Below, in pieces: positions 6,042-21,155 of a DNA stretch of 21,155 nucleotides. Made by a program: the position numbers and the translations under genes. The notes beneath the pieces were generated by a model that had not been told where the DNA came from, made no database searches, and saw nothing but the letters and a program-made list of their open reading frames with translations. Positions within the stretch are counted from its first letter, which is position 1. Every line of letters starts with the position of its first letter. Origin of the DNA: a virus (taxonomy: Duplodnaviria; Heunggongvirae; Uroviricota; Caudoviricetes); the IMG/VR virus record IMGVR_UViG_3300020048_000033, positions 1 through 21,155 of that record; one strand, 5' to 3'.

Positions 6042-8219
6042 ATGATATCAATATTGAAAGCAAAGTTAAAAAACTTTATGTGTATAGATGAGGCTGATTT
6101 AGATTTTCCAGAAAATAAATCTACTATGATTGTAGGTGAAAATGGTTCAGGTAAATCTGCGGTGTTGTGTTCAATTGGTTTAGCTTTTGATTCGTATAAG
6201 AAAGGTGCATCCTTTTCTGATTACATTAAAAAGAATACAAATGAAGCAAAAGTGTTTATTGAAGCTAAGATACATAATGAACCTATCACTTTCGATATTA
6301 CCCTTTCAAGAAAGGGTACTGCATTTGGTCGTATCATCACCTATAAAGAAAAAGAATATATCAATACTGAGTGTGACCAGTTACTTGAAACACTGGAAGT
6401 AACTTATTTTTCTAAAGTAATATTTTCCATGCAGGATGAAGGAGATATTACTTTGATGAAACCGGCGGCACGAGCCGATTTATTATCAAAGCTTCTTGAG
6501 TACGATTTCTCAACTATTGTTTCTAAAGTTTCAGAACTTATAGCTGACTTGAAAAATAAAGTTGTGGATAATAATGCCTCTATTAAACTTAATACGGAAT
6601 TAAGTGCCGAGAAGACAAAAGAAATTGCTATAGTAGAAACTCTTGATTTCACAAATGAAGATATTAAGACATATGAAGAAAAACAAAAGTCTGTTGAATT
6701 AAAGATACAAGCTTATGATAAAATTTCAGAAGACAATTCTTTAATAAATGAAGAGATTGAAACTGTTCGTAAATCTCTTGAACCTTTAACTAAAGAACTT
6801 GAAACTCCTACTTCTATAATCACAAGAGAATCTGAAAAACTTGTAGGTCTTAAAAAAGACTTAGAAAGTTATGAGTCAAGAAAATATTCTATTGAAGAAG
6901 AAATATTAAAAGCAGAAAGCACCATATTAGCTAAAACAATAAAATCAGAAAGTGTACTTGCTTCTCTTGATAATTCAGAGACAGCTATATCTGAGGTTGA
7001 AGCCAAACTTACTGAAAGCAGAAAAATTGGTACAAGTTATACAGTTTCCTACACTCAGATTTGCTCAAGTATCGAAAAAATTAATTCTGATATAAAGTTT
7101 ATGGAGCAGGGTACTTGTCCTACATGTTCATCTACTATTGATCAATCTCAAGTACCTGCATTAAACTCTCAGAAGGAAACACTTAGTAAAGATAAGACTG
7201 AAATTATCAGTAAACAAACTCTTGAAAGGGATAATCAAGTTAAGCTCGATGAAATTCTGAAAGATAAGCAGAAAATTAAAAGTGATATTAAGGGTGAACT
7301 TACTTCACTCACTGATGCAATAAAAACACTTAATGCTTCTATTTCAGAGTCCAAGAAGAAACTCGTAGAGTTAGTAAAACCTCTTGAAGAAACTCTATCC
7401 GCTTGTGAATTATTAATAAAAACAAACAGTGATAAGAAAAATGCAATACAGGAAAAAATTCTTGCTATACAGAAACAGATTTCCTTGCTTGAAACAAGTC
7501 GTGTAACTCAGGAACGAAGTGAGAAGGTAGCTTTTATTGTAGAAAAGAACTCTATCATAGAAAAACTTAAAGATTTTAGTAAAAGAATGGCTTCCATACT
7601 TGAGGTAGAACAATCAAATGCCAGACTTATTAAAGAGATAGCTTCTTGTGAACTTAAAGTAGTAGAACTTAAAGCATTAAATGTTTTAATGAATCAAGAG
7701 ATAGAAGATAATGTAGAAGCAAAGAAAGTTCTTGATAAGGATTTACCTAATTATCTTATAGTTAAGACCTGTGATAAATTAGAGAAAAGAATTAATAGGT
7801 TTGTTCATTCCGTATTTCCTGATATGACTATAAAGATGTATCAGGATAAAAAGGGTGTTGATTTCTTTTATGTCCCTGCTGGAAGCTATGATGCAGATCC
7901 AGAAAATAAAGAATCTTGGATTAATATTGCAATGTCTTCTGGTTGTGAAAAAGCCGCTCTTAGTGTAGGTTGGCGTGTTGCACTTGCAGAAAGTTATGGT
8001 ATTGATATTTTAATGCTCGACGAAGTAGACTCAGCGGCTACAGATAAATCCTCTGAAAAACTTTTAACAACAGTTCTTGATTCCTCAAAGTTCTCACAAG
8101 TATTTATTGTTACTCATAGGAAAGAAACAAGGGACTTTCTGGTAAATAGTAAAGACATAAAAGTTTATTATGCTGATCATGGAGAGTTCTCACTTGATGA
8201 CCCAGAGGATTTTGAATGA
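6042..8219 (+). CDS. Rad50/SbcC/T4 gp46-like SMC-family ATPase (recombination endonuclease subunit)
   Basis: SD GGAGG before ATG 6042. Walker A GENGSGKS, long coiled coil with central CPTC zinc hook, signature SSGCEK, Walker B LMLDEVDS, H-loop IVTH. Confidence 0.92.
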   Translation: MISILKAKLKNFMCIDEADLDFPENKSTMIVGENGSGKSAVLCSIGLAFDSYKKGASFSDYIKKNTNEAKVFIEAKIHNEPITFDITLSRKGTAFGRIITYKEKEYINTECDQLLETLEVTYFSKVIFSMQDEGDITLMKPAARADLLSKLLEYDFSTIVSKVSELIADLKNKVVDNNASIKLNTELSAEKTKEIAIVETLDFTNEDIKTYEEKQKSVELKIQAYDKISEDNSLINEEIETVRKSLEPLTKELETPTSIITRESEKLVGLKKDLESYESRKYSIEEEILKAESTILAKTIKSESVLASLDNSETAISEVEAKLTESRKIGTSYTVSYTQICSSIEKINSDIKFMEQGTCPTCSSTIDQSQVPALNSQKETLSKDKTEIISKQTLERDNQVKLDEILKDKQKIKSDIKGELTSLTDAIKTLNASISESKKKLVELVKPLEETLSACELLIKTNSDKKNAIQEKILAIQKQISLLETSRVTQERSEKVAFIVEKNSIIEKLKDFSKRMASILEVEQSNARLIKEIASCELKVVELKALNVLMNQEIEDNVEAKKVLDKDLPNYLIVKTCDKLEKRINRFVHSVFPDMTIKMYQDKKGVDFFYVPAGSYDADPENKESWINIAMSSGCEKAALSVGWRVALAESYGIDILMLDEVDSAATDKSSEKLLTTVLDSSKFSQVFIVTHRKETRDFLVNSKDIKVYYADHGEFSLDDPEDFE

Positions 8220-12924: not shown

Positions 12925-14028
12925 ATGTATAATTTTAAGAAAATATATGAAGCGACCCATTTGCTTGAGAAGAAAGACCATCTCATAAAAAAGATTCCAG
13001 AGTTATCTGAGGATGAAAAGTCTGAAGTAATTGACTGGTTTTCAGAGCATCCTAACAGGGAAACTGAAATTGATTGGAACAATATAAATTCTCTCAAGTT
13101 CTCAGATTTTGAAGTTTTAATGAAAACCGAATCAAAGACAGGAAGAAAAAATAAAGTTAAGGTAAATGGACTTCAAGGTTTACTCGAAGGTACGGATTTT
13201 GGTTTGGCTTATGAGGATGAGAATATTATTGGTCTTGTTCCATTTCATTATGAAGCCAGTAAATTACTTGCTTCCAAGTATGTTGGAAAAGTTGAAGCAA
13301 AGTGGTGTACAGCCTTTCAGAAAACTGACAAGCACTGGAAAGAATATATCCAACATGGTATAACCTTTGTTTATTTTATAAATAAAAAGGGTTCTGTTGG
13401 AGAGGAAGTAAATACTTTTTCTTGGAATAAAATTGCAGTAACTATATATCCTAAAAATATATTTGATGGTAAACTTGAAACTTATGATGAGACAGACAAC
13501 AAAGCTATTAAAATGAAGCCAAGACCAACTTCATGGTTATATAAGAGAATTGAAAAGTCAATTATTGATATCGCTGTTGAAGAAGCCAAACTTTTGGGAC
13601 AAAAGATAAACAGAGTATTTTTCAATGAGTTAAGTTTAGAGTCTTTAAAGGATTGGAAGATTAATTTTCAACTTGATTCTGAGGGTAAAGTTAATGTTGA
13701 AGGCGATTGTGATATATCTGGTAAATTCTTAAACACCTTTGGTACTGTAGTCTTTGGAAATATTAGTGGAGACTTTGATTGTTCCTTTAATAAACTAACA
13801 GACTTAACAGGTGGACCACAAACTACTGACGGTCATTATAAGTGTAACAATAATAAATTGACAAGCTTAGAAGGAATCCCCGATAAAGTTGGTGGAGATT
13901 TTGATTGCTCTGGTAATGAATTAAATGAAATTTGGTCTCCTGATTGGGTTGGTGGAGATATTATTGATTATGATAATAATATAGACTATGGATTTGAGGA
14001 AGAAGAACCAGAAGAAGATGACGAATAA
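12925..14028 (+). CDS. Hypothetical protein with N-terminal IYE/LLE propeptide-like motif, KWCT motif and C-terminal LRR-like repeats
   Basis: FKKIYEATHLLEK; AKWCTAF; repeats GDFDCSFNKLTDLTGGP / GHYKCNNNKLTSLEGIP / GDFDCSGNEL; acidic tail. Confidence 0.75.
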   Translation: MYNFKKIYEATHLLEKKDHLIKKIPELSEDEKSEVIDWFSEHPNRETEIDWNNINSLKFSDFEVLMKTESKTGRKNKVKVNGLQGLLEGTDFGLAYEDENIIGLVPFHYEASKLLASKYVGKVEAKWCTAFQKTDKHWKEYIQHGITFVYFINKKGSVGEEVNTFSWNKIAVTIYPKNIFDGKLETYDETDNKAIKMKPRPTSWLYKRIEKSIIDIAVEEAKLLGQKINRVFFNELSLESLKDWKINFQLDSEGKVNVEGDCDISGKFLNTFGTVVFGNISGDFDCSFNKLTDLTGGPQTTDGHYKCNNNKLTSLEGIPDKVGGDFDCSGNELNEIWSPDWVGGDIIDYDNNIDYGFEEEEPEEDDE

Positions 14029-14070: not shown

Positions 14071-14820
14071 ATGAAATACACAACGGATAAAGAAGGAAAT
14101 TTAATATTTGATGTCTCAGCAGGATTTTCAAATTCATCACAAAGAAACAATATATACGTAGATAAGGTTTTAAAAAAGTCTACAGCTTTGGTTGCCTGTA
14201 ATGCCACGTCAATGGGTATGGGGTTGGAATATACCGGGTGGTCTATTCCACAAAAGTATCTTGAATTAAAACAACAAGAGGATAACCTTATCAAGTTTTG
14301 TCAGGAAGACTCTATTGTATTAGATTACTATAAAAAAACTCTTCCTGCAATGTATGCTGCATGGTTGGTAAGAGCAAAAGACTGCTATGCACCAAATGAA
14401 GTACACGATGTTTTAAGCTATGCAATAAATATGTATATGGGTTCAAAAGTAACCTATTTTAAGGTTAATACCCTTGTAAGTGAAATTGTTTCCGATATCT
14501 CAATTAGAAATCTCCCAATCGTAATGAGCGGAAAGTTTGCAGGTTTTGGTCATGTTGTATGTTTAGTAGGTTTCAAGGCAAAGAAAGAATTCCTTGAGGG
14601 CTATAATAAAACAAAAACTATTACAGAGGATTTACTTAAGTTTATTTATGAGTGGACTATTGATGACCCTTATGGGGATTTTAGAAATGATTATAAGATT
14701 GTATTATCGGGAAATAATATTCCTATGACCTCACTACAATTTAATACAATGTTCAATCCCAGAGAAAGCACAACCGTTAAGTTTGCACATCGGTTTAATA
14801 AACCTCCAGTGAAATCCTAA
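14071..14820 (+). CDS. Papain-like cysteine peptidase, C39-like
   Basis: SQRNN (oxyanion Gln), ACNATS (Cys), GHVVCLVG (His), IDDPYG (Asp) in the order expected for C39-like peptidases. Confidence 0.75.
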   Translation: MKYTTDKEGNLIFDVSAGFSNSSQRNNIYVDKVLKKSTALVACNATSMGMGLEYTGWSIPQKYLELKQQEDNLIKFCQEDSIVLDYYKKTLPAMYAAWLVRAKDCYAPNEVHDVLSYAINMYMGSKVTYFKVNTLVSEIVSDISIRNLPIVMSGKFAGFGHVVCLVGFKAKKEFLEGYNKTKTITEDLLKFIYEWTIDDPYGDFRNDYKIVLSGNNIPMTSLQFNTMFNPRESTTVKFAHRFNKPPVKS

Positions 14821-14920: not shown

Positions 14921-16009
14921 ATGAAAAGCTTTTTGGGGTTGAAGGGTAGTGAAAGGGATAAGTTTTATCAGTCAAAATACGAGTATTTTTTAAAGTTAAA
15001 TTTAGGGGCAATATTTTCTTCTTATATTAGCTTAGTATTACTGTGGGTAACGGATTGTCAACTTTTTGGTAGATTAGCTTTTGAAACTCTTTTTCCCCGG
15101 GTAATAATGGTACTTCCGATAAGTCTATTTTATATTCTTGTTAAGAGGGGTGTAACTAATTACAGGATAATGATACCCTTTACTTATTTTATATTACATG
15201 GAATAATGTGGTGTACAATATGGGCATGTTACTATCTACCTACTAACAAGTTTTCAAGTCAAGGTTTTATGATGATGCAGTTTATGTTTCTTATAGTAGG
15301 TTTCAGTGCCCCCTACTTTAGAAATATATTTTTCCATTTAGGTATATTTTTAAATATGTATGTATCTCACTTCTTTATTAACTATGAAGATTTCCTTATG
15401 TTGATGCTCTTTGGTATTCCCTTATATATAGGGATTGCTATCATTCAGTATGTTTTAACTAACTCTTATAAAGAACAATACGATCTTAAACAGAAACTTT
15501 CGGAGTTAGCCACAGTTGATTTTCTCACAAAAGCTTATAATAGGAATATTCTTACTACCATTACTGAACCAGAAACTAAAAAGTTTATTAAAAAATTGGG
15601 TGTATCGATTAAAATCCTTCTTTTGGACATTGATTTTTTCAAGAAAATAAACGATGATTTTGGTCATGATGCAGGAGATACCGTTCTTACTACTGTCTCT
15701 GAAACAATAAAGTCCTGTATTAGGGATACCGATATTTTCCTTAGATGGGGTGGAGAGGAGTTTGTTGTAATTATGCCAAATATTACCCTTGAATCCGCAA
15801 AAATGATTGCAGAAAGAATTCGTTCATCCGTGGAAAAAGTAGAAACCGGTCTTCGAGGGGTAACAGTATCAATCGGTATTTCTGACTATGATAATGACAA
15901 TTATCAGGAATCAATAGATAACTCCGATAAGGCTTTGTATAAAGCAAAAGAATCGGGAAGAAACCAAGTACAGTATTTTAAGGAATTAAGAAGTGTTACA
16001 AATAACTAA
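14921..16009 (+). CDS. Membrane-anchored diguanylate cyclase (GGDEF domain)
   Basis: About 5-6 N-terminal TM segments; DFLTKAYNR, LLDIDFFKKINDDFGHDAGD, I-site RDTD, RWGGEEF, VTVSIG, DKALYKAKESGRN. Confidence 0.95.
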   Translation: MKSFLGLKGSERDKFYQSKYEYFLKLNLGAIFSSYISLVLLWVTDCQLFGRLAFETLFPRVIMVLPISLFYILVKRGVTNYRIMIPFTYFILHGIMWCTIWACYYLPTNKFSSQGFMMMQFMFLIVGFSAPYFRNIFFHLGIFLNMYVSHFFINYEDFLMLMLFGIPLYIGIAIIQYVLTNSYKEQYDLKQKLSELATVDFLTKAYNRNILTTITEPETKKFIKKLGVSIKILLLDIDFFKKINDDFGHDAGDTVLTTVSETIKSCIRDTDIFLRWGGEEFVVIMPNITLESAKMIAERIRSSVEKVETGLRGVTVSIGISDYDNDNYQESIDNSDKALYKAKESGRNQVQYFKELRSVTNN

Positions 16010-16661
16010 AAGTTTTAAGAGAATATATGAGGCATCCAATAAATATCAATCTTCCTCCGAGTTTTTGAAATGGTTTGGAAATTCTGTGGTGGTGAATGAG
16101 GAAGGTAAACCCCTAGTAGTTTATCATGGAACTCGATTTAAGTCTAAAAATGATAAGCTTCGGTCAGGTTCTTGGTTCACAGATAACTCAGATTTTGCAG
16201 GGGGTTTTATTAATGGAAGAAAGTCTAATGGTACCCCGAGTGAAAGAGAGGTAAAGGATAGAAGTAGAATATATCCTGCATTTTTATCAATAAAGAATCC
16301 TATAATATATAAAGCCGCATGGCATCACATTTCACCTGAAAGGTTTGCAAATATTGTAGGTATCCCCTATGAGGACTTAAATGCAAAGGCTCTTGAGTTT
16401 GCTCGACAAGGCAATAAAAAAGAGGAAGCAGAGCATGAGAATGACTGGGTAAGAAATCCTTACGCCTCAGGTTGGAGACAAAAGGACTTTCCAATCTCTG
16501 AAATGCCAGAGAATATGTTTGCCATATATTTTGATAATAAAAATCTTATAAAGGCTCTTCAATTTTATGGTTTTGATGGGGTTCAGTCTATGGAAGGTGG
16601 ATCGAACACTTGGCAGGTTTGGGACGAATCTCAGGTAAGGTCTATATATGGAAAAGGATGA
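15993..16661 (+). CDS. ART-PolyVal-like ADP-ribosyltransferase-fold protein with N-terminal FKRIYEA motif
   Basis: FLKWFGNSVVVNEEGKPLVVYHGT, WFT, IYPAFLSIKNP, GFDGV..MEGG...WQVWDESQVRS. GTG start with SD AAGGA; overlaps the DGC stop. Confidence 0.65.
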   Translation: MLQITKSFKRIYEASNKYQSSSEFLKWFGNSVVVNEEGKPLVVYHGTRFKSKNDKLRSGSWFTDNSDFAGGFINGRKSNGTPSEREVKDRSRIYPAFLSIKNPIIYKAAWHHISPERFANIVGIPYEDLNAKALEFARQGNKKEEAEHENDWVRNPYASGWRQKDFPISEMPENMFAIYFDNKNLIKALQFYGFDGVQSMEGGSNTWQVWDESQVRSIYGKG

Positions 16662-16689
16662 CCCAGAAAAAAGTTCCGAGTCATCCTTT
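16653..16689. terminator. Hairpin between convergent genes, probable bidirectional terminator
   Basis: AAAGGATGAC (16653-16662) / GTCATCCTTT (16680-16689), 17-nt loop. Confidence 0.6.
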
Positions 16690-16694
16690 AAGTC

Positions 16695-17081
16695 TTACAG
16701 GATGGGGATAACGGTGGGATTCAGGCTGTCAAAAAAATCGTTGATGGATTTGATTGGCGTAGAATTGTTACAGGAAAAAAGGTCATTTCCCCGATTTGTC
16801 CCTTCTCTGATGACAATCTCCTGAGGACTGTGAGTGTACCCAAAATAGTACCGTTTTCCTCCGATAATGCACCATACTGAGTTTCCCGTCTTATCCATCG
16901 GGTCTGAGGTGGAAATTACGGTAATTTCTTCATTACCTTGGGCATCTTTGTCGCTGTAGATGAAGATATTCCCTATGAGAAGTGGTACAATATCCCTGAC
17001 CTCAAGGGCATGATGGTTGCTTCGTGCGATAGCTTCCACGAAATGAAGCCGAAGGTCTGCGGGGGAAAGTTTCTGAGGCAT
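16695..17081 (-). CDS. Protein resembling the integron cassette protein Cass14 (VCH_CASS14) family
   Basis: SD AGGAG. ARSNHHA..V, NSVWCIIGGKRYYFGYTH...IVIREG..RG...NSTP match the recalled Cass14 pattern RADHHA / NVLW..I.G.RY.F.YNH / NSTP. GC about 45% by hand count. Confidence 0.65.
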   Translation of the reverse strand: MPQKLSPADLRLHFVEAIARSNHHALEVRDIVPLLIGNIFIYSDKDAQGNEEITVISTSDPMDKTGNSVWCIIGGKRYYFGYTHSPQEIVIREGTNRGNDLFSCNNSTPIKSINDFFDSLNPTVIPIL

Positions 17082-17109
17082 AGGTACTCCTTAATTGTGC
17101 AATAGAATA

Positions 17110-17138
17110 AATATAACCCCTTTATATATGGAAGTCAA
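17110..17138 (-). promoter_or_regulatory. Sigma70-like promoter for the minus-strand gene
   Basis: On the - strand, TTGACT (17138-17133)-17 nt-TATATT (17115-17110). Confidence 0.6.
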
Positions 17139-17139
17139 G

Positions 17140-17158
17140 AAAACTTCTAAGAAGTTTT
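17140..17158. repeat. Perfect 9-bp palindrome between divergent promoters
   Basis: AAAACTTCT-A-AGAAGTTTT. Confidence 0.6.
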
Positions 17159-17169
17159 AAAAAGTCTCT

Positions 17170-17206
17170 AAGTTTTGAACTTTTATTAAAATTCCTGTAT
17201 ATTATA
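17170..17206 (+). promoter_or_regulatory. Conserved sigma70-like (early-type) promoter
   Basis: TTGAAC (17175-17180)-17 nt-TATATT (17198-17203); near-copy at 20502-20538. Confidence 0.7.
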
Positions 17207-17242
17207 GGTAGATAATTTGTTTTTTAATCCTACTTGGAAAGA

Positions 17243-17252
17243 CTAACTAATT
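17243..17252 (+). promoter_or_regulatory. CTAACTAATT motif
   Basis: Intergenic, upstream of the SD (AGAGGA) of 17305. Confidence 0.4.
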
Positions 17253-17304
17253 CTCTATGAGCATTTAGAGATGCTTCAATATTAAGACGTAACAAGAGGA
17301 AACT

Positions 17305-17808
17305 ATGAAAATTATACTTAAAGAGGGTCAGGAATTGTTGGATATTCAGGGAAATACCCTACTTAGCGAAAGTGGAGACTTTATCAGCTCAGGCGAAAAA
17401 TTGCAGGAAACGATTTTTGATAATGAAAAAGCCGAGATTATAATGGGATTTTTAAGGGGTGCTTTGTTTACAGGAACCGATACTAATAACCCTGAATCCG
17501 GTGGAGAACCCCTAGAGGATAACTTCACACTTGAAGATTTCTGTGTAGAAAGTAAAGAAAAAGCCAAAAACATTGTAGAATGTTTCTTGAAAAAAATTGG
17601 TGATATTGATGTAGAAGTTGAAGGTAAAGATTTCGATGACCTTGGTATTGATCTTTGGATGACTATGACCCATCAGGGTGTAGGTTTCTGGGATGGAAGT
17701 TGGGGAGATATTGGCGATACCCTTGATGCCTACGCAAAAGAAGTAACTAAGGAATTTTATATAGAAGGTGCTTGGGATACTGATGAGGGTGAAGTAGAAA
17801 TTTATTAA
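17305..17808 (+). CDS. Acidic hypothetical phage protein with N-terminal LKE/LSE/LQE motifs
   Basis: 167 aa, SD AGAGGA. LGIDLWMTMTHQGVGFWD resembles a recurrent phage motif G.D.WLTRN.HG.GFWD of unknown function. Confidence 0.75.
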   Translation: MKIILKEGQELLDIQGNTLLSESGDFISSGEKLQETIFDNEKAEIIMGFLRGALFTGTDTNNPESGGEPLEDNFTLEDFCVESKEKAKNIVECFLKKIGDIDVEVEGKDFDDLGIDLWMTMTHQGVGFWDGSWGDIGDTLDAYAKEVTKEFYIEGAWDTDEGEVEIY

Positions 17809-17816
17809 ATAAAAGG

Positions 17817-17839
17817 AGGGTCAGAAGTCTGACCCTTTT
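17817..17839 (+). terminator. Rho-independent terminator
   Basis: AGGGTCAG-aagt-CTGACCCT-TTT. Confidence 0.75.
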
Positions 17840-17858
17840 AATTTTAAAGGACATTGAT

Positions 17859-19706
17859 GTGAAGTTACAAGAAAATATTACGGATTATGGAACAGATAAA
17901 CATGGAGTAGAATGGGTAAGATTCTTTTTACGAGGAACAGCTACTTGGATTACCCAACGAGATGAAAACTCTGTTTGGTGGTTTAGTGATAATACAGGTC
18001 TTGACCTAATTAGAGCTATAGAAGAAGCATCCGTTTTTTCTAAGAGTGTATATTCAATTAAAGAAATTGATACTGAGTTATATAATGACCTATCTGCATG
18101 GATGGATGGTAGTACAGATAAAACACTTATTGGTAAAGAATACCTAAAGGTAGAAAATAAAATGAGAAAAAACTTAAATGAAACCGAGAAGCGTGAATAC
18201 CGCTTATATGATAAATATCAAGGTGGAGAGGATGTAATTGCTACTTTCAAAACTTTGGAAAATGCTATTTCAAGACTAGTAGACTATGTTAAAGGAACAG
18301 AAGCTTCCGATTATGATAAGTACCAGTCTGTATTTGTTGAAGGTCCCGATCCGTGGAACCATAAGTATTTAATTGGATATGTAATATGTGACAAAGGGTT
18401 ATTTAATGATGATCTTTTTAAGCACATTGAAGATTCTGGAAATATGTATATAACTGTTTATACCGATGGAACTTGGAAAGCAAATGAACTTGCATTAAAA
18501 ACTTTAAAAGATCCATCTGAAAATACTTTAGAAGAAAAAAAGGAAGAAAATATGATTAATAGAATTAAAGAATCTACAAGTTGGTTCGTTACTTATGTAG
18601 GCGAATCTACTAACTGGGATAATAAAGGTGTTAAATATATACCTATGGTAGGTTCTGATAGTATTAGAGAATTTGATGGAAGATTGAGTTTAAACTCTGC
18701 CTTAGTAAAAGCCTGTGAGTATGGAAAAGTGTTGAACAGTAGAACTAAGGGTGGGTATGTCAAGGGCTTGGTAATAGGTCGTAGCGGGTCTCAAAGAAGT
18801 TTTGATGAAACCAATTTGGTTATTTATACCCTTTCGGGATCTAAGACAGGTAAGCATATTGACGACTATGTAGAATCAGGAGAATTTAATATGGATAAAA
18901 AGCCAATGAGAGAAGCAGGACAATATACCTTTGATGGGAGAGTGGAAGATGAGTTTTATGAAGGTAATTCAAGATTCAAAACCATTTACAATTATATCTC
19001 AAAAAGATTTGGACCTGAGTTTGGCAAAAGTCAATCACAGGTAAATGTAAAAGCTTTCTCAGAAGGTATTTATGATTTTATCATAGAAACAAAGGGTGAA
19101 AATCGTTCTGGCGACCAAGAAGAATTGATTGAGTATATTGACAACCTTTTTGAAGACTTTGATGATTTCTTAGACAGTGATATCATGGATGCTGTTAAGG
19201 ATTATATTTGTTCAGAAGTAGAGAATGTAGGAATCAGAGTTGACGATGATGAGTACCTTGAAAATATGTATGCTGATAGCGGTCTTGACTTGGAATATAA
19301 TGAGAATGAATCTGGTTTCGTTGATAGTGAAGATGAAGACACCTACCTATTAGAAAAAGGTCTTACAAAAAAAGACCTTGAGGATTGGTTATCACATCAG
19401 GAAAATCTTAACATTGAAACAATTATTGAAGATCGTTATCAGGATGCGTCTGGTCGTGGTGTAATTTTACTTGGATGCTACCCTATAGGTGAAATGGAAG
19501 AACAACTTCCTGATGAATTACTTCGATTCTTTAGAAATCCTGAGAATACAGATTTACTAATTGATTTAGATCGTAGATTTAAGTATCGGGTCGATAATGG
19601 TATGGTCTATATTGACCTTAGCCAAAAAACTATAAACTATGTAGTGTATTGGAGACAAATTGCTAAGAAGTTCTATGAAGATATGGGAATAGATTCCACA
19701 AAATAA
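17859..19706 (+). CDS. Composite acidic protein (615 aa), apparent fusion of 4-5 modules
   Basis: GTG start with SD AAAGGA. In-frame internal ATGs at 18162, 18552 and 18891, each with an SD-like sequence and followed by an (I/L/M)xE motif. Confidence 0.75.
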   Translation: MKLQENITDYGTDKHGVEWVRFFLRGTATWITQRDENSVWWFSDNTGLDLIRAIEEASVFSKSVYSIKEIDTELYNDLSAWMDGSTDKTLIGKEYLKVENKMRKNLNETEKREYRLYDKYQGGEDVIATFKTLENAISRLVDYVKGTEASDYDKYQSVFVEGPDPWNHKYLIGYVICDKGLFNDDLFKHIEDSGNMYITVYTDGTWKANELALKTLKDPSENTLEEKKEENMINRIKESTSWFVTYVGESTNWDNKGVKYIPMVGSDSIREFDGRLSLNSALVKACEYGKVLNSRTKGGYVKGLVIGRSGSQRSFDETNLVIYTLSGSKTGKHIDDYVESGEFNMDKKPMREAGQYTFDGRVEDEFYEGNSRFKTIYNYISKRFGPEFGKSQSQVNVKAFSEGIYDFIIETKGENRSGDQEELIEYIDNLFEDFDDFLDSDIMDAVKDYICSEVENVGIRVDDDEYLENMYADSGLDLEYNENESGFVDSEDEDTYLLEKGLTKKDLEDWLSHQENLNIETIIEDRYQDASGRGVILLGCYPIGEMEEQLPDELLRFFRNPENTDLLIDLDRRFKYRVDNGMVYIDLSQKTINYVVYWRQIAKKFYEDMGIDSTK

Positions 19707-19718
19707 TTTAACTTAAAG

Positions 19719-19745
19719 AAAGGACTGCTTACTTGCAGTCCTTTT
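19719..19745 (+). terminator. Rho-independent terminator
   Basis: AAAGGACTGC-ttactt-GCAGTCCTTT(T). Confidence 0.85.
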
Positions 19746-19752
19746 AATTTTA

Positions 19753-19763
19753 TGTTAATATAC
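19753..19763 (+). promoter_or_regulatory. TGTTAATATAC motif
   Basis: Identical to 137-147; lies between the terminator and the RNA ligase SD (GAGG). Confidence 0.45.
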
Positions 19764-19777
19764 ATTTGAGGATTATC

Positions 19778-20434
19778 ATGGAAAAGTACAAATACCCAAG
19801 AACATATCATCTTCCCTTCTCAAATACTTCTAATGATGATAAGAAACATCCTTCGGTGGATTTCTTATTGGGAAAGGAAGTTATAGTAACTGAGAAAATG
19901 GACGGAGAAAACTCTTCTTTTTCTCAAGAGTATTATCATGCAAGATCACTCGACTCAAACAATCATCCCAGTAGAGATTATGTTAAACACTTTTGGAGTT
20001 CTATTCAATACTTTATCCCTGAAGGTATCCGTATCTGTGGGGAAAATCTGTATGCTCAACATTCAATTCGATATGAAAATCTTCCTGATTTCTTTCTTGC
20101 TTTTTCTGCTTGGAAAGATGACACCTGTTTAAGTTGGGATGAAACACTTAGATTATTTAAAACTTTAAGTATTTTTCCTGTAAGAACCTTGTATGAAGGG
20201 GTTTATGATATTGAAAAGATTCATGCAAAATGGAAAACACTATCCGAGGGAAAAGAAGGATATGTTATTCGATTGAGGAACAGCTTTACCTATGACAATT
20301 TCTCTGAAAGTGTCGTCAAATTTGTTCGACCAAACCATGTACAAACAGGAGATCATTGGATGAACTCCACCATTATTAAGAATAAAATGAATCCAGACTA
20401 TACCAAATGGTATCGAGACCTTAGAATCAACTAA
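19778..20434 (+). CDS. RNA ligase family nucleotidyltransferase (Rnl2-like adenylation domain)
   Basis: KYPRTYHLP, motif I TEKMDGEN, motif III ICGENLY, IIIa FLAFSAW, IV EGYVIR, V VVKFVR. ATG 19778 after SD GAGG. Confidence 0.88.
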   Translation: MEKYKYPRTYHLPFSNTSNDDKKHPSVDFLLGKEVIVTEKMDGENSSFSQEYYHARSLDSNNHPSRDYVKHFWSSIQYFIPEGIRICGENLYAQHSIRYENLPDFFLAFSAWKDDTCLSWDETLRLFKTLSIFPVRTLYEGVYDIEKIHAKWKTLSEGKEGYVIRLRNSFTYDNFSESVVKFVRPNHVQTGDHWMNSTIIKNKMNPDYTKWYRDLRIN

Positions 20435-20483
20435 TTTTGTACTAAAACAGTACATTTAGTCTATTTTGCACTAAAACAGTACA
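20434..20483. repeat. Tandem 21-bp direct repeat, each copy palindromic
   Basis: ATTTTGTACTAAAACAGTACA (20434-20454) and ATTTTGCACTAAAACAGTACA (20463-20483), 20/21 identical; core TGTACT-N5-AGTACA. Confidence 0.8.
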
Positions 20484-20501
20484 CACTTAAAAATCGTAAG
20501 A

Positions 20502-20538
20502 AAGTTTTGAACTTTTTCTGAACTTCCTATATATTATA
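20502..20538 (+). promoter_or_regulatory. Conserved sigma70-like (early-type) promoter
   Basis: TTGAAC (20507-20512)-17 nt-TATATT (20530-20535); AAGTTTTGAACTTTT is identical to 17170-17184. Confidence 0.72.
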
Positions 20539-20562
20539 TATGTAAGGAAAAAGGGGTTTAAA

Positions 20563-21155
20563 ATGGACAAAGTAGTGCGATTGATGCTGGTTTCCGAAAA
20601 TAATAACAACAAATTTTACGATATGATAGCTCATGGGGATACGTTTACTGCCAATTGGGGTCGAGTCGGTGCAAAATGCCAGACAAAAGACTATCCAATA
20701 TCCTCATGGGATAAAGTGTACCGTGAGAAAACGAATCCAAACAAGTCAGGTGGCCCGTACACAGATGTTACCGCTCATGCTTCTATCAATAAGACTGAAA
20801 AGAATCTCAACATCAAGGACAAGGACGTAAAAGCCCTTATCAACTTCCTTATGTCATCGGCAAAACAATCAATAACTGAATCTTATACGGTCGCTGTAAA
20901 CGAAGTAACCAAAAAACAGCTTGAATCTGCACAGGAACTTCTGGAGAAACTTTCGATTATGTCCGGTAAGAAAACCATTTCTACCGAAGAGGTCAATGAA
21001 GTCCTCCTGCTCCTGTATCGAACCATTCCCCGAAAAATGAAGGACACCAGAAAGTATCTGCTTCAAGAAGCAAGCCATACATTCTTGGATGAACTCCTTG
21101 CCAATGAACAAAATCTTCTCAATACCCTTTCAACTCAGGTTGTAGTATCTACTTC
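20563..21155 (+). CDS. WGR-domain, PARP-like protein (5' part; runs off the window end)
   Basis: Not in the ORF track. Hand translation: MDKVVRLMLVSENNNNKFYDMIAHGDTFTANWGRVGAK...WDKVYREK...LLYRTIPRKMKD...EQNLLNTL, i.e. a WGR domain followed by a PARP regulatory-like helical domain. SD AAGGGG. Confidence 0.8.
   Translation, partial: MDKVVRLMLVSENNNNKFYDMIAHGDTFTANWGRVGAKCQTKDYPISSWDKVYREKTNPNKSGGPYTDVTAHASINKTEKNLNIKDKDVKALINFLMSSAKQSITESYTVAVNEVTKKQLESAQELLEKLSIMSGKKTISTEEVNEVLLLLYRTIPRKMKDTRKYLLQEASHTFLDELLANEQNLLNTLSTQVVVST

Follow-up and report, generated by a model that had tools for sequence, protein, structure and literature searches.

A phage reading frame probably built by in-frame fusion of small accessory genes, with two of their start signals in place

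Modular composition of the reading frame

We analyzed a window of 21,155 nucleotides (nt), the first part of the 143,203-nt record IMGVR_UViG_3300020048_000033 of a Caudoviricetes phage in IMG/VR. At positions 17859..19706 on the plus strand, the window carries an open reading frame (ORF) of 615 amino acids (aa; 71.4 kDa, pI 4.55), which starts with GTG seven nt downstream of the motif AAAGGA (17846-17851) and ends with a TAA stop codon (19704-19706). An earlier note, made from the sequence without database searches, had proposed that several genes are fused in frame here and that internal start signals were retained. Our analysis supports the fusion. Relatives of the protein align with it module by module, never over its full length, and the stand-alone homologs of its last two modules start within a few residues of internal methionines, M232 and M345. 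The protein can be divided with good support into module A (aa 1-111; 17859..18191), module B (aa 112-231; 18192..18551), module C (aa 232-344; 18552..18890), and module D (aa 345-615; 18891..19703), all encoded on the plus strand. Module A includes M102 and a 10-residue leader, MRKNLNETEK, that precedes module B. The isoelectric point is 8.7 for module C and 4.2 for module D; the latter is extremely acidic, with a net charge of -35 overall and of -27 over 81 residues.

Relatives were identified with an exhaustive phmmer search (HMMER) of 1.84 billion representative proteins. Besides the ORF itself there were 11 matches, none of which spanned the whole protein. One of these (P0011, 1408 aa) was set aside, its match consisting of seven short stretches with an E value of 8.8e-4. 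P0003 (107 aa) and P0005 matched aa 114-230, P0010 (186 aa) and P0012 matched aa 235-351, and P0002, P0004, P0006, P0007, and P0008 matched aa 345-611, while P0009 matched aa 430-607 only. A further relative of D, P0013, was gained by profile search. Module B is thus homologous to a stand-alone protein (P0003) and to the N-terminal part of P0005; module C to residues 1-110 of P0010 and 92-202 of P0012; and module D, over its full length, to stand-alone proteins of 266-272 aa (P0004 and P0007), as well as to the D part of P0002, P0006, P0008, and P0013. Two or more independently occurring modules are thus present in this one polypeptide, as stand-alone homologs or homologs in other combinations exist for B, C, and D alike, and no relative was found that aligned along the full length. 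Module A had no phmmer match among the 1.84 billion representatives.

Neither the ORF nor the B, C, and D parts of its homologs belonged to a Pfam, NCBIfam, or PHROG family at E ≤ 0.001. Searches of 50,697 phage records with tblastn and megablast gave no match to the ORF and no relative in a cultured phage, and a word-index protein search at "near" and "shorter" lengths returned the ORF itself only. IMG/VR was scanned with profiles for each of the three modules B, C, and D and for the phrog_1915 domain, and one JGI metagenome with the D profile; no additional loci emerged. Among 5.8 billion clusters, a single contig carries the composite ORF.

Module borders were taken from the N-termini of the homologs. 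When the full protein was aligned with all module homologs in MAFFT, the N-termini of C and D were misplaced, and these alignments were not used. Stand-alone D proteins begin with MKKIKEAGQYTF or MEKIKEAGQYTF, which align with MDKKPMREAGQYTF at M345 of the window protein (M345-DKKPMREAGQYTF). The stand-alone C protein P0010 starts with MKRVLEASGQW, and the corresponding sequence at M232 is MINRIKESTSW. For module B, the start MKY(V/T)L of P0003 and P0005 aligns with R112-E-Y-R-L, which is why we placed the border ten residues after M102. The B unit had previously been assigned to begin at M102, and that assignment must be moved to about residue 112. A fifth module had also been suggested near position 19345 (approximately residue 496). 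We found no ATG and no Shine-Dalgarno (SD) motif at this site, and no homolog begins there. Because the stand-alone D proteins of 266-272 aa align unbroken through residue 496, we recognize no fifth gene-level module. A sub-domain boundary within D is possible, given that P0009 shares only aa 432-607 and that a weak structural model of D has one helical and one alpha/beta half, with an acidic stretch of low confidence between them. D probably comprises two sub-domains split by the acidic stretch at approximately aa 420-500.

Structure prediction with AlphaFold2 was consistent with the borders between modules. In a model of A-B-C built from shallow alignments, the predicted local distance difference test (pLDDT) score was 57.3 overall, with B and C forming separate confident blocks. 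The core of B reached 60-77, and C, the best-modeled part, reached about 74-87 over most of its length; between them lay a low-confidence linker (aa 217-230, pLDDT below 50). Module A was poorly modeled (27-55), as was D (48.8), whose model was not used for structure searches. Comparison of the A-B-C model with 48,161 PDB chains by VIA-align gave a best Z score of 5.3, within the noise range, and Foldseek found nothing in BFVD at E ≤ 0.001, the best entries being small uncharacterized phage proteins. These noise-level matches partitioned into aa 1-42, 110-218, and 238-331, consistent with the module borders. Profile searches of PDB sequences with B, C, and D gave nothing below E = 0.15. The entry at that value, an "Immunity factor for SPN" (3qb2) matched by D, was rejected as not significant.

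Start signals inside the reading frame

Three in-frame ATG codons with purine-rich motifs upstream, at 18162, 18552, and 18891, had been pointed out in the earlier note, and we found all three exactly as described. The first (M102) lies 11 nt downstream of AAAGG (18146-18150), amounting to a weak SD motif only (4-mer AAGG, 11 nt), with a folding energy of -4.0 kcal/mol. The other two coincide with module borders and constitute candidate retained translation-initiation regions. One, at 18540..18554 on the plus strand, consists of AAGGAAG (core AAGGA, 18540-18544), a 7-nt spacer, and ATG 18552 (M232). The second, at 18878..18893 on the plus strand, consists of AGGAG(A) at 18878-18883, a spacer of 7-8 nt, and ATG 18891 (M345). 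Both have an SD score of 5. The folding energy from -30 to +30 is -0.2 kcal/mol at M232, which places it in the least-structured 0.2% of 588 internal ATGs, and -3.6 kcal/mol at M345.

We compared these signals with those of the 143-kb contig as a whole, using the starts of 115 genes of at least 100 aa and 588 internal in-frame ATGs. A strong SD motif was defined as a 5-mer or longer at a spacing of 4-11 nt, and folding was calculated over -30 to +30. Strong motifs preceded 58 of the 115 gene starts versus 12 of the 588 internal ATGs, and the mean folding energy was -4.9 kcal/mol at gene starts versus -8.05 kcal/mol at internal ATGs. When an SD score of at least 5 was combined with a folding energy of at least -4.0 kcal/mol, M232 and M345 were the only internal ATGs of the contig to qualify, although that energy threshold was picked after the values had been seen, which tells against the result. 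By an earlier and stricter count, 13 of 550 internal ATGs qualified genome-wide, as against 2 of 11 within the composite ORF. We conclude that the junctions at M232 and M345 are start-like well beyond chance, each offering an in-frame internal start with a ribosome-binding site in accessible mRNA.

It is possible, if in our view doubtful, that the ORF encodes an ordinary multidomain protein translated from 17859 only. The SD motifs and methionines at the junctions would then be inert relics or coincidences arising from linkers rich in K, E, and G. The motifs are indeed built of common codons (AAG GAA for K-E and GGA GAA for G-E), and other fused relatives work without a methionine at the junction. 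Against a single product, M232 and M345 are the sole start-like positions among the 588 internal ATGs when SD motif and folding are considered together, and both fall where homology places the N-termini of C and D. Moreover, ribosomes generally initiate at an accessible SD motif and ATG regardless of its origin. Internal initiation at M232 and M345 has about an even chance of occurring.

The same locus in related phages

The gene immediately upstream of the ORF (17305-17808, plus strand) encodes an approximately 30-residue N-terminal "LKEGQ..." tag followed by a phrog_1915 domain. Homologs of this anchor gene (48-55% identity) mark the same locus in four metagenomic contigs (L002, L007, L008, and L009), where they precede genes for B or D. 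In the window, the anchor is followed by A-B-C-D. In L002, it is followed by a 104-aa gene, a 113-aa tagged gene, and D alone (P0004). In L007, the next gene joins B, the tag, and a domain that we call X into one protein of 300 aa (P0005), and the gene after it encodes D with a C-terminal extension (392+ aa, running off the contig end; the full-length version in contig L010, P0002, has 395 aa). L008 has tag and X alone (191 aa), then tag, a domain Y, D, and extension in one protein (P0008, 536 aa), while L009 has a tagged gene and then tag, D, and extension (P0013, 437 aa). The 104-aa gene of L002 was considered as a remote homolog of B and rejected (E 0.043).

The fused and free states of one such gene can be compared directly. 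The tag and X of P0005 are 55% identical to the free gene at L008:7406-7981 from residue 2 to the last residue, and the initiator methionine alone is replaced, by threonine. The X domain of P0005 (aa 147-276; L007:1881-2783) matches phrog_21515 (E 2.4e-8), a stand-alone phage family of unknown function. Module C occurs at a different locus. In contig L004 (658-1969), the C gene P0010, complete with its C-terminal part, lies directly upstream of a 56%-identical homolog of window gene 14071-14820; in the window, the position upstream of 14071-14820 is held by an unrelated 367-aa gene (12925-14028). A domain resembling the extension behind D also appears to be present in the source phage in another gene, as residues ~247-333 of a 389-aa ORF at 137065-138234 on the plus strand of the record, outside the window, are similar to the extension of P0002, P0008, and P0013 (30% identity, E about 1e-4).

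From this gene order, D appears to be the constant last element of a hot spot at which the upstream small genes vary. Small genes have been joined to D or to each other at this hot spot in at least four independent ways. We considered whether the process ran in the opposite direction, with a multidomain ancestor like the present ORF splitting into separate genes and the internal starts serving as preadaptations. Fission needs an in-frame internal start, which is present here, and the NTLEEK... linker that follows B in both the window and P0005 may mean that a fused state of B and something downstream is the older one. However, D is found in at least five upstream states (alone, with the tag, with the tag and Y, with a divergent tag, and with A-B-C), C stands at a different locus in L004, and tag and X are free in L008 and fused in L007. 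Many independent fissions and translocations would be required, as opposed to few fusions. The direction of change is inferred, and fusion is far more economical; we regard fission as very unlikely.

State of the junctions

Genes for stand-alone D carry AAGGAG, a spacer of 6-7 nt, and ATG, with the upstream stop codon overlapping or just preceding the SD motif. The layout at M345 matches that of the D genes in L007, L010, and L002. The C/D junction of the window, tcAGGAGaatttaatATG, reads S-G-E-F-N-M, and its B/C junction, aaaAAGGAAgaaaatATG, reads K-K-E-E-N-M. No relative has the same fusion. In the four other fusions involving D or B, the methionine at the junction has been replaced (by T in P0005, K in P0006, N in P0008, and E in P0013), and SD motifs are absent from all four junctions, as would fit decay in older fusions. 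The start signals in the window are therefore either very young or kept through use.

The fusion had been attributed to loss of stop codons between genes, which the junctions do not bear out in any simple form. Module C is without the C-terminal part of approximately 75 residues present in P0010 and P0012, and relative to these homologs it is cut just before the SD motif. Because of this truncation, the C/D joint looks like the product of deletion or recombination rather than of a point mutation in a stop codon. A TAG in the +1 frame, 17 nt before ATG 18891, was considered as a relic stop codon and dismissed as coincidence, the homology of C continuing in frame 0. Module B ends in the linker PSENTLEEKKEEN, of the form P-x-x-NTLEEK..., which is common to the window and P0005. 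The partners downstream of this linker differ in the two proteins, and both begin with M/x-x-x-I-x-(I/L)-K-E, a pattern that suggests partner exchange at a conserved gene start.

Origin of the fusion and its products

We propose that B, C, and D were at least three independent small accessory genes that would have been fused in frame recently, with the orphan N-terminal part A placed ahead of the B-C-D fusion. The fusion would have arisen in a hypervariable locus where adjoining small genes repeatedly join and re-partner. C and D appear to retain intact ribosome-binding sites and start codons, in mRNA that is weakly folded, so the most likely products would be the full-length 71-kDa protein, a C-D protein of about 44 kDa from M232, and a D protein of about 32 kDa from M345. 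We give this reading as a whole, a recent in-frame fusion with retained start signals of C and D that most likely gives full-length and nested products, a probability of roughly 0.8, internal initiation itself standing at about even odds.

In addition to the post hoc energy threshold, several points weigh against this proposal. Module A is without a relative, so it may never have been a separate gene, and M102, with its weak SD motif only, precedes by 10 residues the start that homology gives for B. The relatives are few and distant (22-40% identity), with three sequences each for B and C. The fusion is known from one sequence, such that neither its age nor selection on the internal starts is measurable. 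The AGGAG at M345 also codes for S-G-E, right where the homology of C ends, and coding constraint may contribute to its presence. Finally, the function of the protein is inferred from context alone.

Nested in-frame genes are well known in phages, including lambda C/Nu3, T7 gene 4A/4B, and phiX174 A/A*, in which the internal start is conserved and the products have been demonstrated. As in those cases, initiation at the in-frame SD motifs and ATGs would yield products that lack part of the N terminus and end at the same C terminus as the longer ORF. In contrast to the lambda C/Nu3 type, the internal starts of our ORF appear to be inherited from recently joined genes and are seen in one sequence, other fusions having lost theirs. 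The locus itself recalls the hyperplastic regions of T4-type phages, where modular shuffling of small early genes was reportedly described by Arbiol, Comeau, Krisch, and colleagues in about 2010. In both settings, small accessory genes vary while flanking genes are kept, and recombination could use repeated regulatory or N-terminal sequences as its joints. Yet the hyperplastic units remain separate genes, each with a promoter-stem-loop cassette, whereas here they are joined into single reading frames.

The ORF also resembles the polyvalent proteins of phages and conjugative elements (Iyer, Burroughs, Anand, de Souza, and Aravind 2017; PMC5512222). Like them, it combines several unrelated modules in one phage polypeptide, with solo versions in other phages, and lies in a conflict-type gene neighborhood, which here includes a solo ADP-ribosyltransferase (ART) domain of the ART-PolyVal family (PF18760) in a separate gene (15993-16661, 1.2 kb upstream of the ORF). 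Unlike them, it has no module that comes from the cataloged set of polyvalent domains (ART-PolyVal, MuF, MPTase, methylase-helicase, ArdC, and others) or from any Pfam family, and it is small and without a link to virion, MuF, portal, or conjugation genes. The protein thus resembles a small polyvalent protein in its makeup and departs from the group in its domain content; the surrounding genes that we see, for replication, nucleotide metabolism, and accessory functions, do not suggest a setting of virion or transfer genes.

What we describe is a known evolutionary theme, built here from uncharacterized families. It offers a clean, statistically supported case in which small phage accessory genes appear to have been welded into a multidomain protein with the downstream translation signals intact, alongside at least four independent fusions that related phages carry at this locus. 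It can serve as a concrete system for asking how phage effectors with several domains come about, whether leftover internal starts are put to use in fixing isoform stoichiometry, and whether modules are exchanged at joints formed by the short N-terminal motifs that they share. The three modules B, C, and D and the approximately 30-residue LKEGQ tag are uncharacterized and found in metagenomic phages only, and the payoff depends on their function.

N-terminal motifs and virion cargo

The earlier note had also read the ORF as a cargo polyprotein, pointing to an x-x-E motif after each start. An [ILM]-x-E motif does follow all four, 3-8 residues in (LQE at 3-5, LNE at 106-108, IKE at 236-238, and MRE at 350-352). 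However, such motifs are not enriched at N-termini across this genome. [ILVM]-x-E occurred in 22.6% of N-termini versus 20.2% of interior windows (P = 0.24), and with a small residue after the E in 6.5% versus 4.6% (P = 0.15).

Under the cargo hypothesis, an h-x-E propeptide or capsid-targeting signal at each module would bring the fused chain into the prohead, and a T4-type prohead protease cutting after Glu would free four effectors injected with the DNA. Such a system has precedents. Prohead proteases of T4-type and giant phages cut after Glu, at L/I-x-E in T4 and at A/S/G-x-E in giant phages, and T4 uses N-terminal capsid-targeting sequences of 10-20 residues; known targeted proteins or protease substrates include the IPs, Alt, and the ejection proteins of phiKZ and SPN3US (PMC5694885, and Mullaney and Black 1996 cited there). 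T4 Alt is itself a packaged ART (PMC5512222), and a solo ART-PolyVal gene lies upstream of our ORF. In line with T4 capsid-targeted proteins, the ORF belongs to a phage with T4-type relatives in which short x-x-E leaders head unrelated accessory proteins; the contig of P0006 encodes a T4-type Gp23 capsid protein (PF07068), and members of the C and D families share a conserved h-K/x-E-(A/S)-G-Q at the N-terminus. Against the hypothesis, the generic motif is not enriched at N-termini, the ORF contains 16 such motifs in all, and stand-alone homologs of B are without it. Neither the PF03420 protease nor the PF07068 capsid gene was found in the 143 kb, which represent only 47% of the genome, and the neighbors of the ORF are replication, nucleotide-metabolism, and accessory genes rather than head genes. 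The T4 late-promoter sequence TATAAATA occurred 4 times versus 3.5 expected, with no copy upstream of the ORF. Cargo packaging, capsid targeting, and release by a protease are therefore unsupported, and we consider a packaged polyprotein improbable.

An approximately 30-residue N-terminal tag, M-K-x-I-x-L-K-E-G-Q-x-h-x-D-x-x-G-N-x-Y-L-h-E-K-G-D-x-I, heads many small genes of this phage clade that are otherwise unrelated. It is present once in the 143-kb record, in the phrog_1915 gene (window 17305-17400), and in at least ten genes of related loci (including L002:700-790; L007:3-95, 424-520, and 2220-2320; L008:7406-7500 and 8001-8100; and L009:277-370, 1957-2050, and 2427-2530), and it has no Pfam match. 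The h-K-E-(A/S)-G-Q of the C and D families resembles the beginning of this tag, which could be a portable unit of targeting, cleavage, or recombination. In an extended version of this idea, small accessory genes would share a portable signal at their N-termini (h-K-E-(A/G)-G-Q or the longer LKEGQ...EKGD tag); recombination at this signal would join the genes head to tail, and the signal would also direct targeting or cleavage. The ORF would then be a snapshot of the assembly of polyvalent or injected effectors, delivered as nested isoforms or as pieces released by a protease. We think this unlikely.

Another shared N-terminus, F-K-(K/R)-I-Y-E-(A/S), begins three unrelated proteins and is more specific than the generic x-x-E. 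They start with MYNFKKIYEAT (window 12925-12960), MLQITKSFKRIYEAS (the ART-PolyVal protein; window 15993-16040), and MKYNIEFKRIYES (a gene at 111484-113181 on the minus strand of the genome, outside the window). The two copies in the window are 75% identical over 40 nt of DNA.

Gene neighborhood and possible role

The source phage belongs to a clade of large T4-related phages in which this locus is hypervariable. Its record has approximately 32% G+C, with nearly all genes on the plus strand, and the estimated completeness of 47% implies a whole genome of roughly 300 kb. Elsewhere, the window encodes an SNF2-type helicase, an SbcC-like ATPase, an NrdD that carries an intein, and a membrane GGDEF protein. 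Closer to the ORF are a C39-like peptidase (14071-14820), the ART-PolyVal gene, and a Cass14-like gene on the minus strand (16695-17081); downstream are an RNA ligase (19766-20434) and a WGR/PARP-like gene (20563 onward). Among the relatives, a PARP gene lies 2 kb beyond the C39-like peptidase homolog in L004, and a gene for an S-adenosylmethionine lyase adjoins P0006. Given the ART-PolyVal, RNA ligase, WGR-PARP, and C39-like peptidase neighbors and the acidity of D, the protein is probably an accessory factor in host takeover or counter-defense.

A hairpin with a T-run at 17817..17840 on the plus strand lies 18 nt before the GTG start; the scan had found its stem on the minus strand, and the plus-strand T-run was read from the sequence. 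Because there is no room behind this hairpin for a promoter of its own, the ORF is probably cotranscribed with gene 17305-17808. A terminator-like hairpin also follows the ORF (19718..19745, plus strand). The same tail, CTTTTAATTTTA, stands behind both hairpins (17817-17850 and 19718-19755); hairpin and tail together may form a conserved cassette, for termination or regulation, at the gene borders of the region.

Across 16500-20700, matches to sigma-70-like promoters were no more common than in shuffled sequence. A 37-nt direct repeat, 86% identical between its copies at 17170-17206 and 20502-20538 (AAGTTTTGAAC...TATATTATA), has a promoter-like core, TTGAAC-17-TATATT, and lies upstream of gene 17305 and of the WGR/PARP gene; it is probably a shared phage promoter. 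The stretch between the RNA ligase and PARP genes (20434-20483) holds two copies, 29 nt apart, of a 21-nt element, ATTTTG(T/C)ACTAAAACAGTACA, each containing the inverted repeat TGTACT...AGTACA in an operator-like arrangement.

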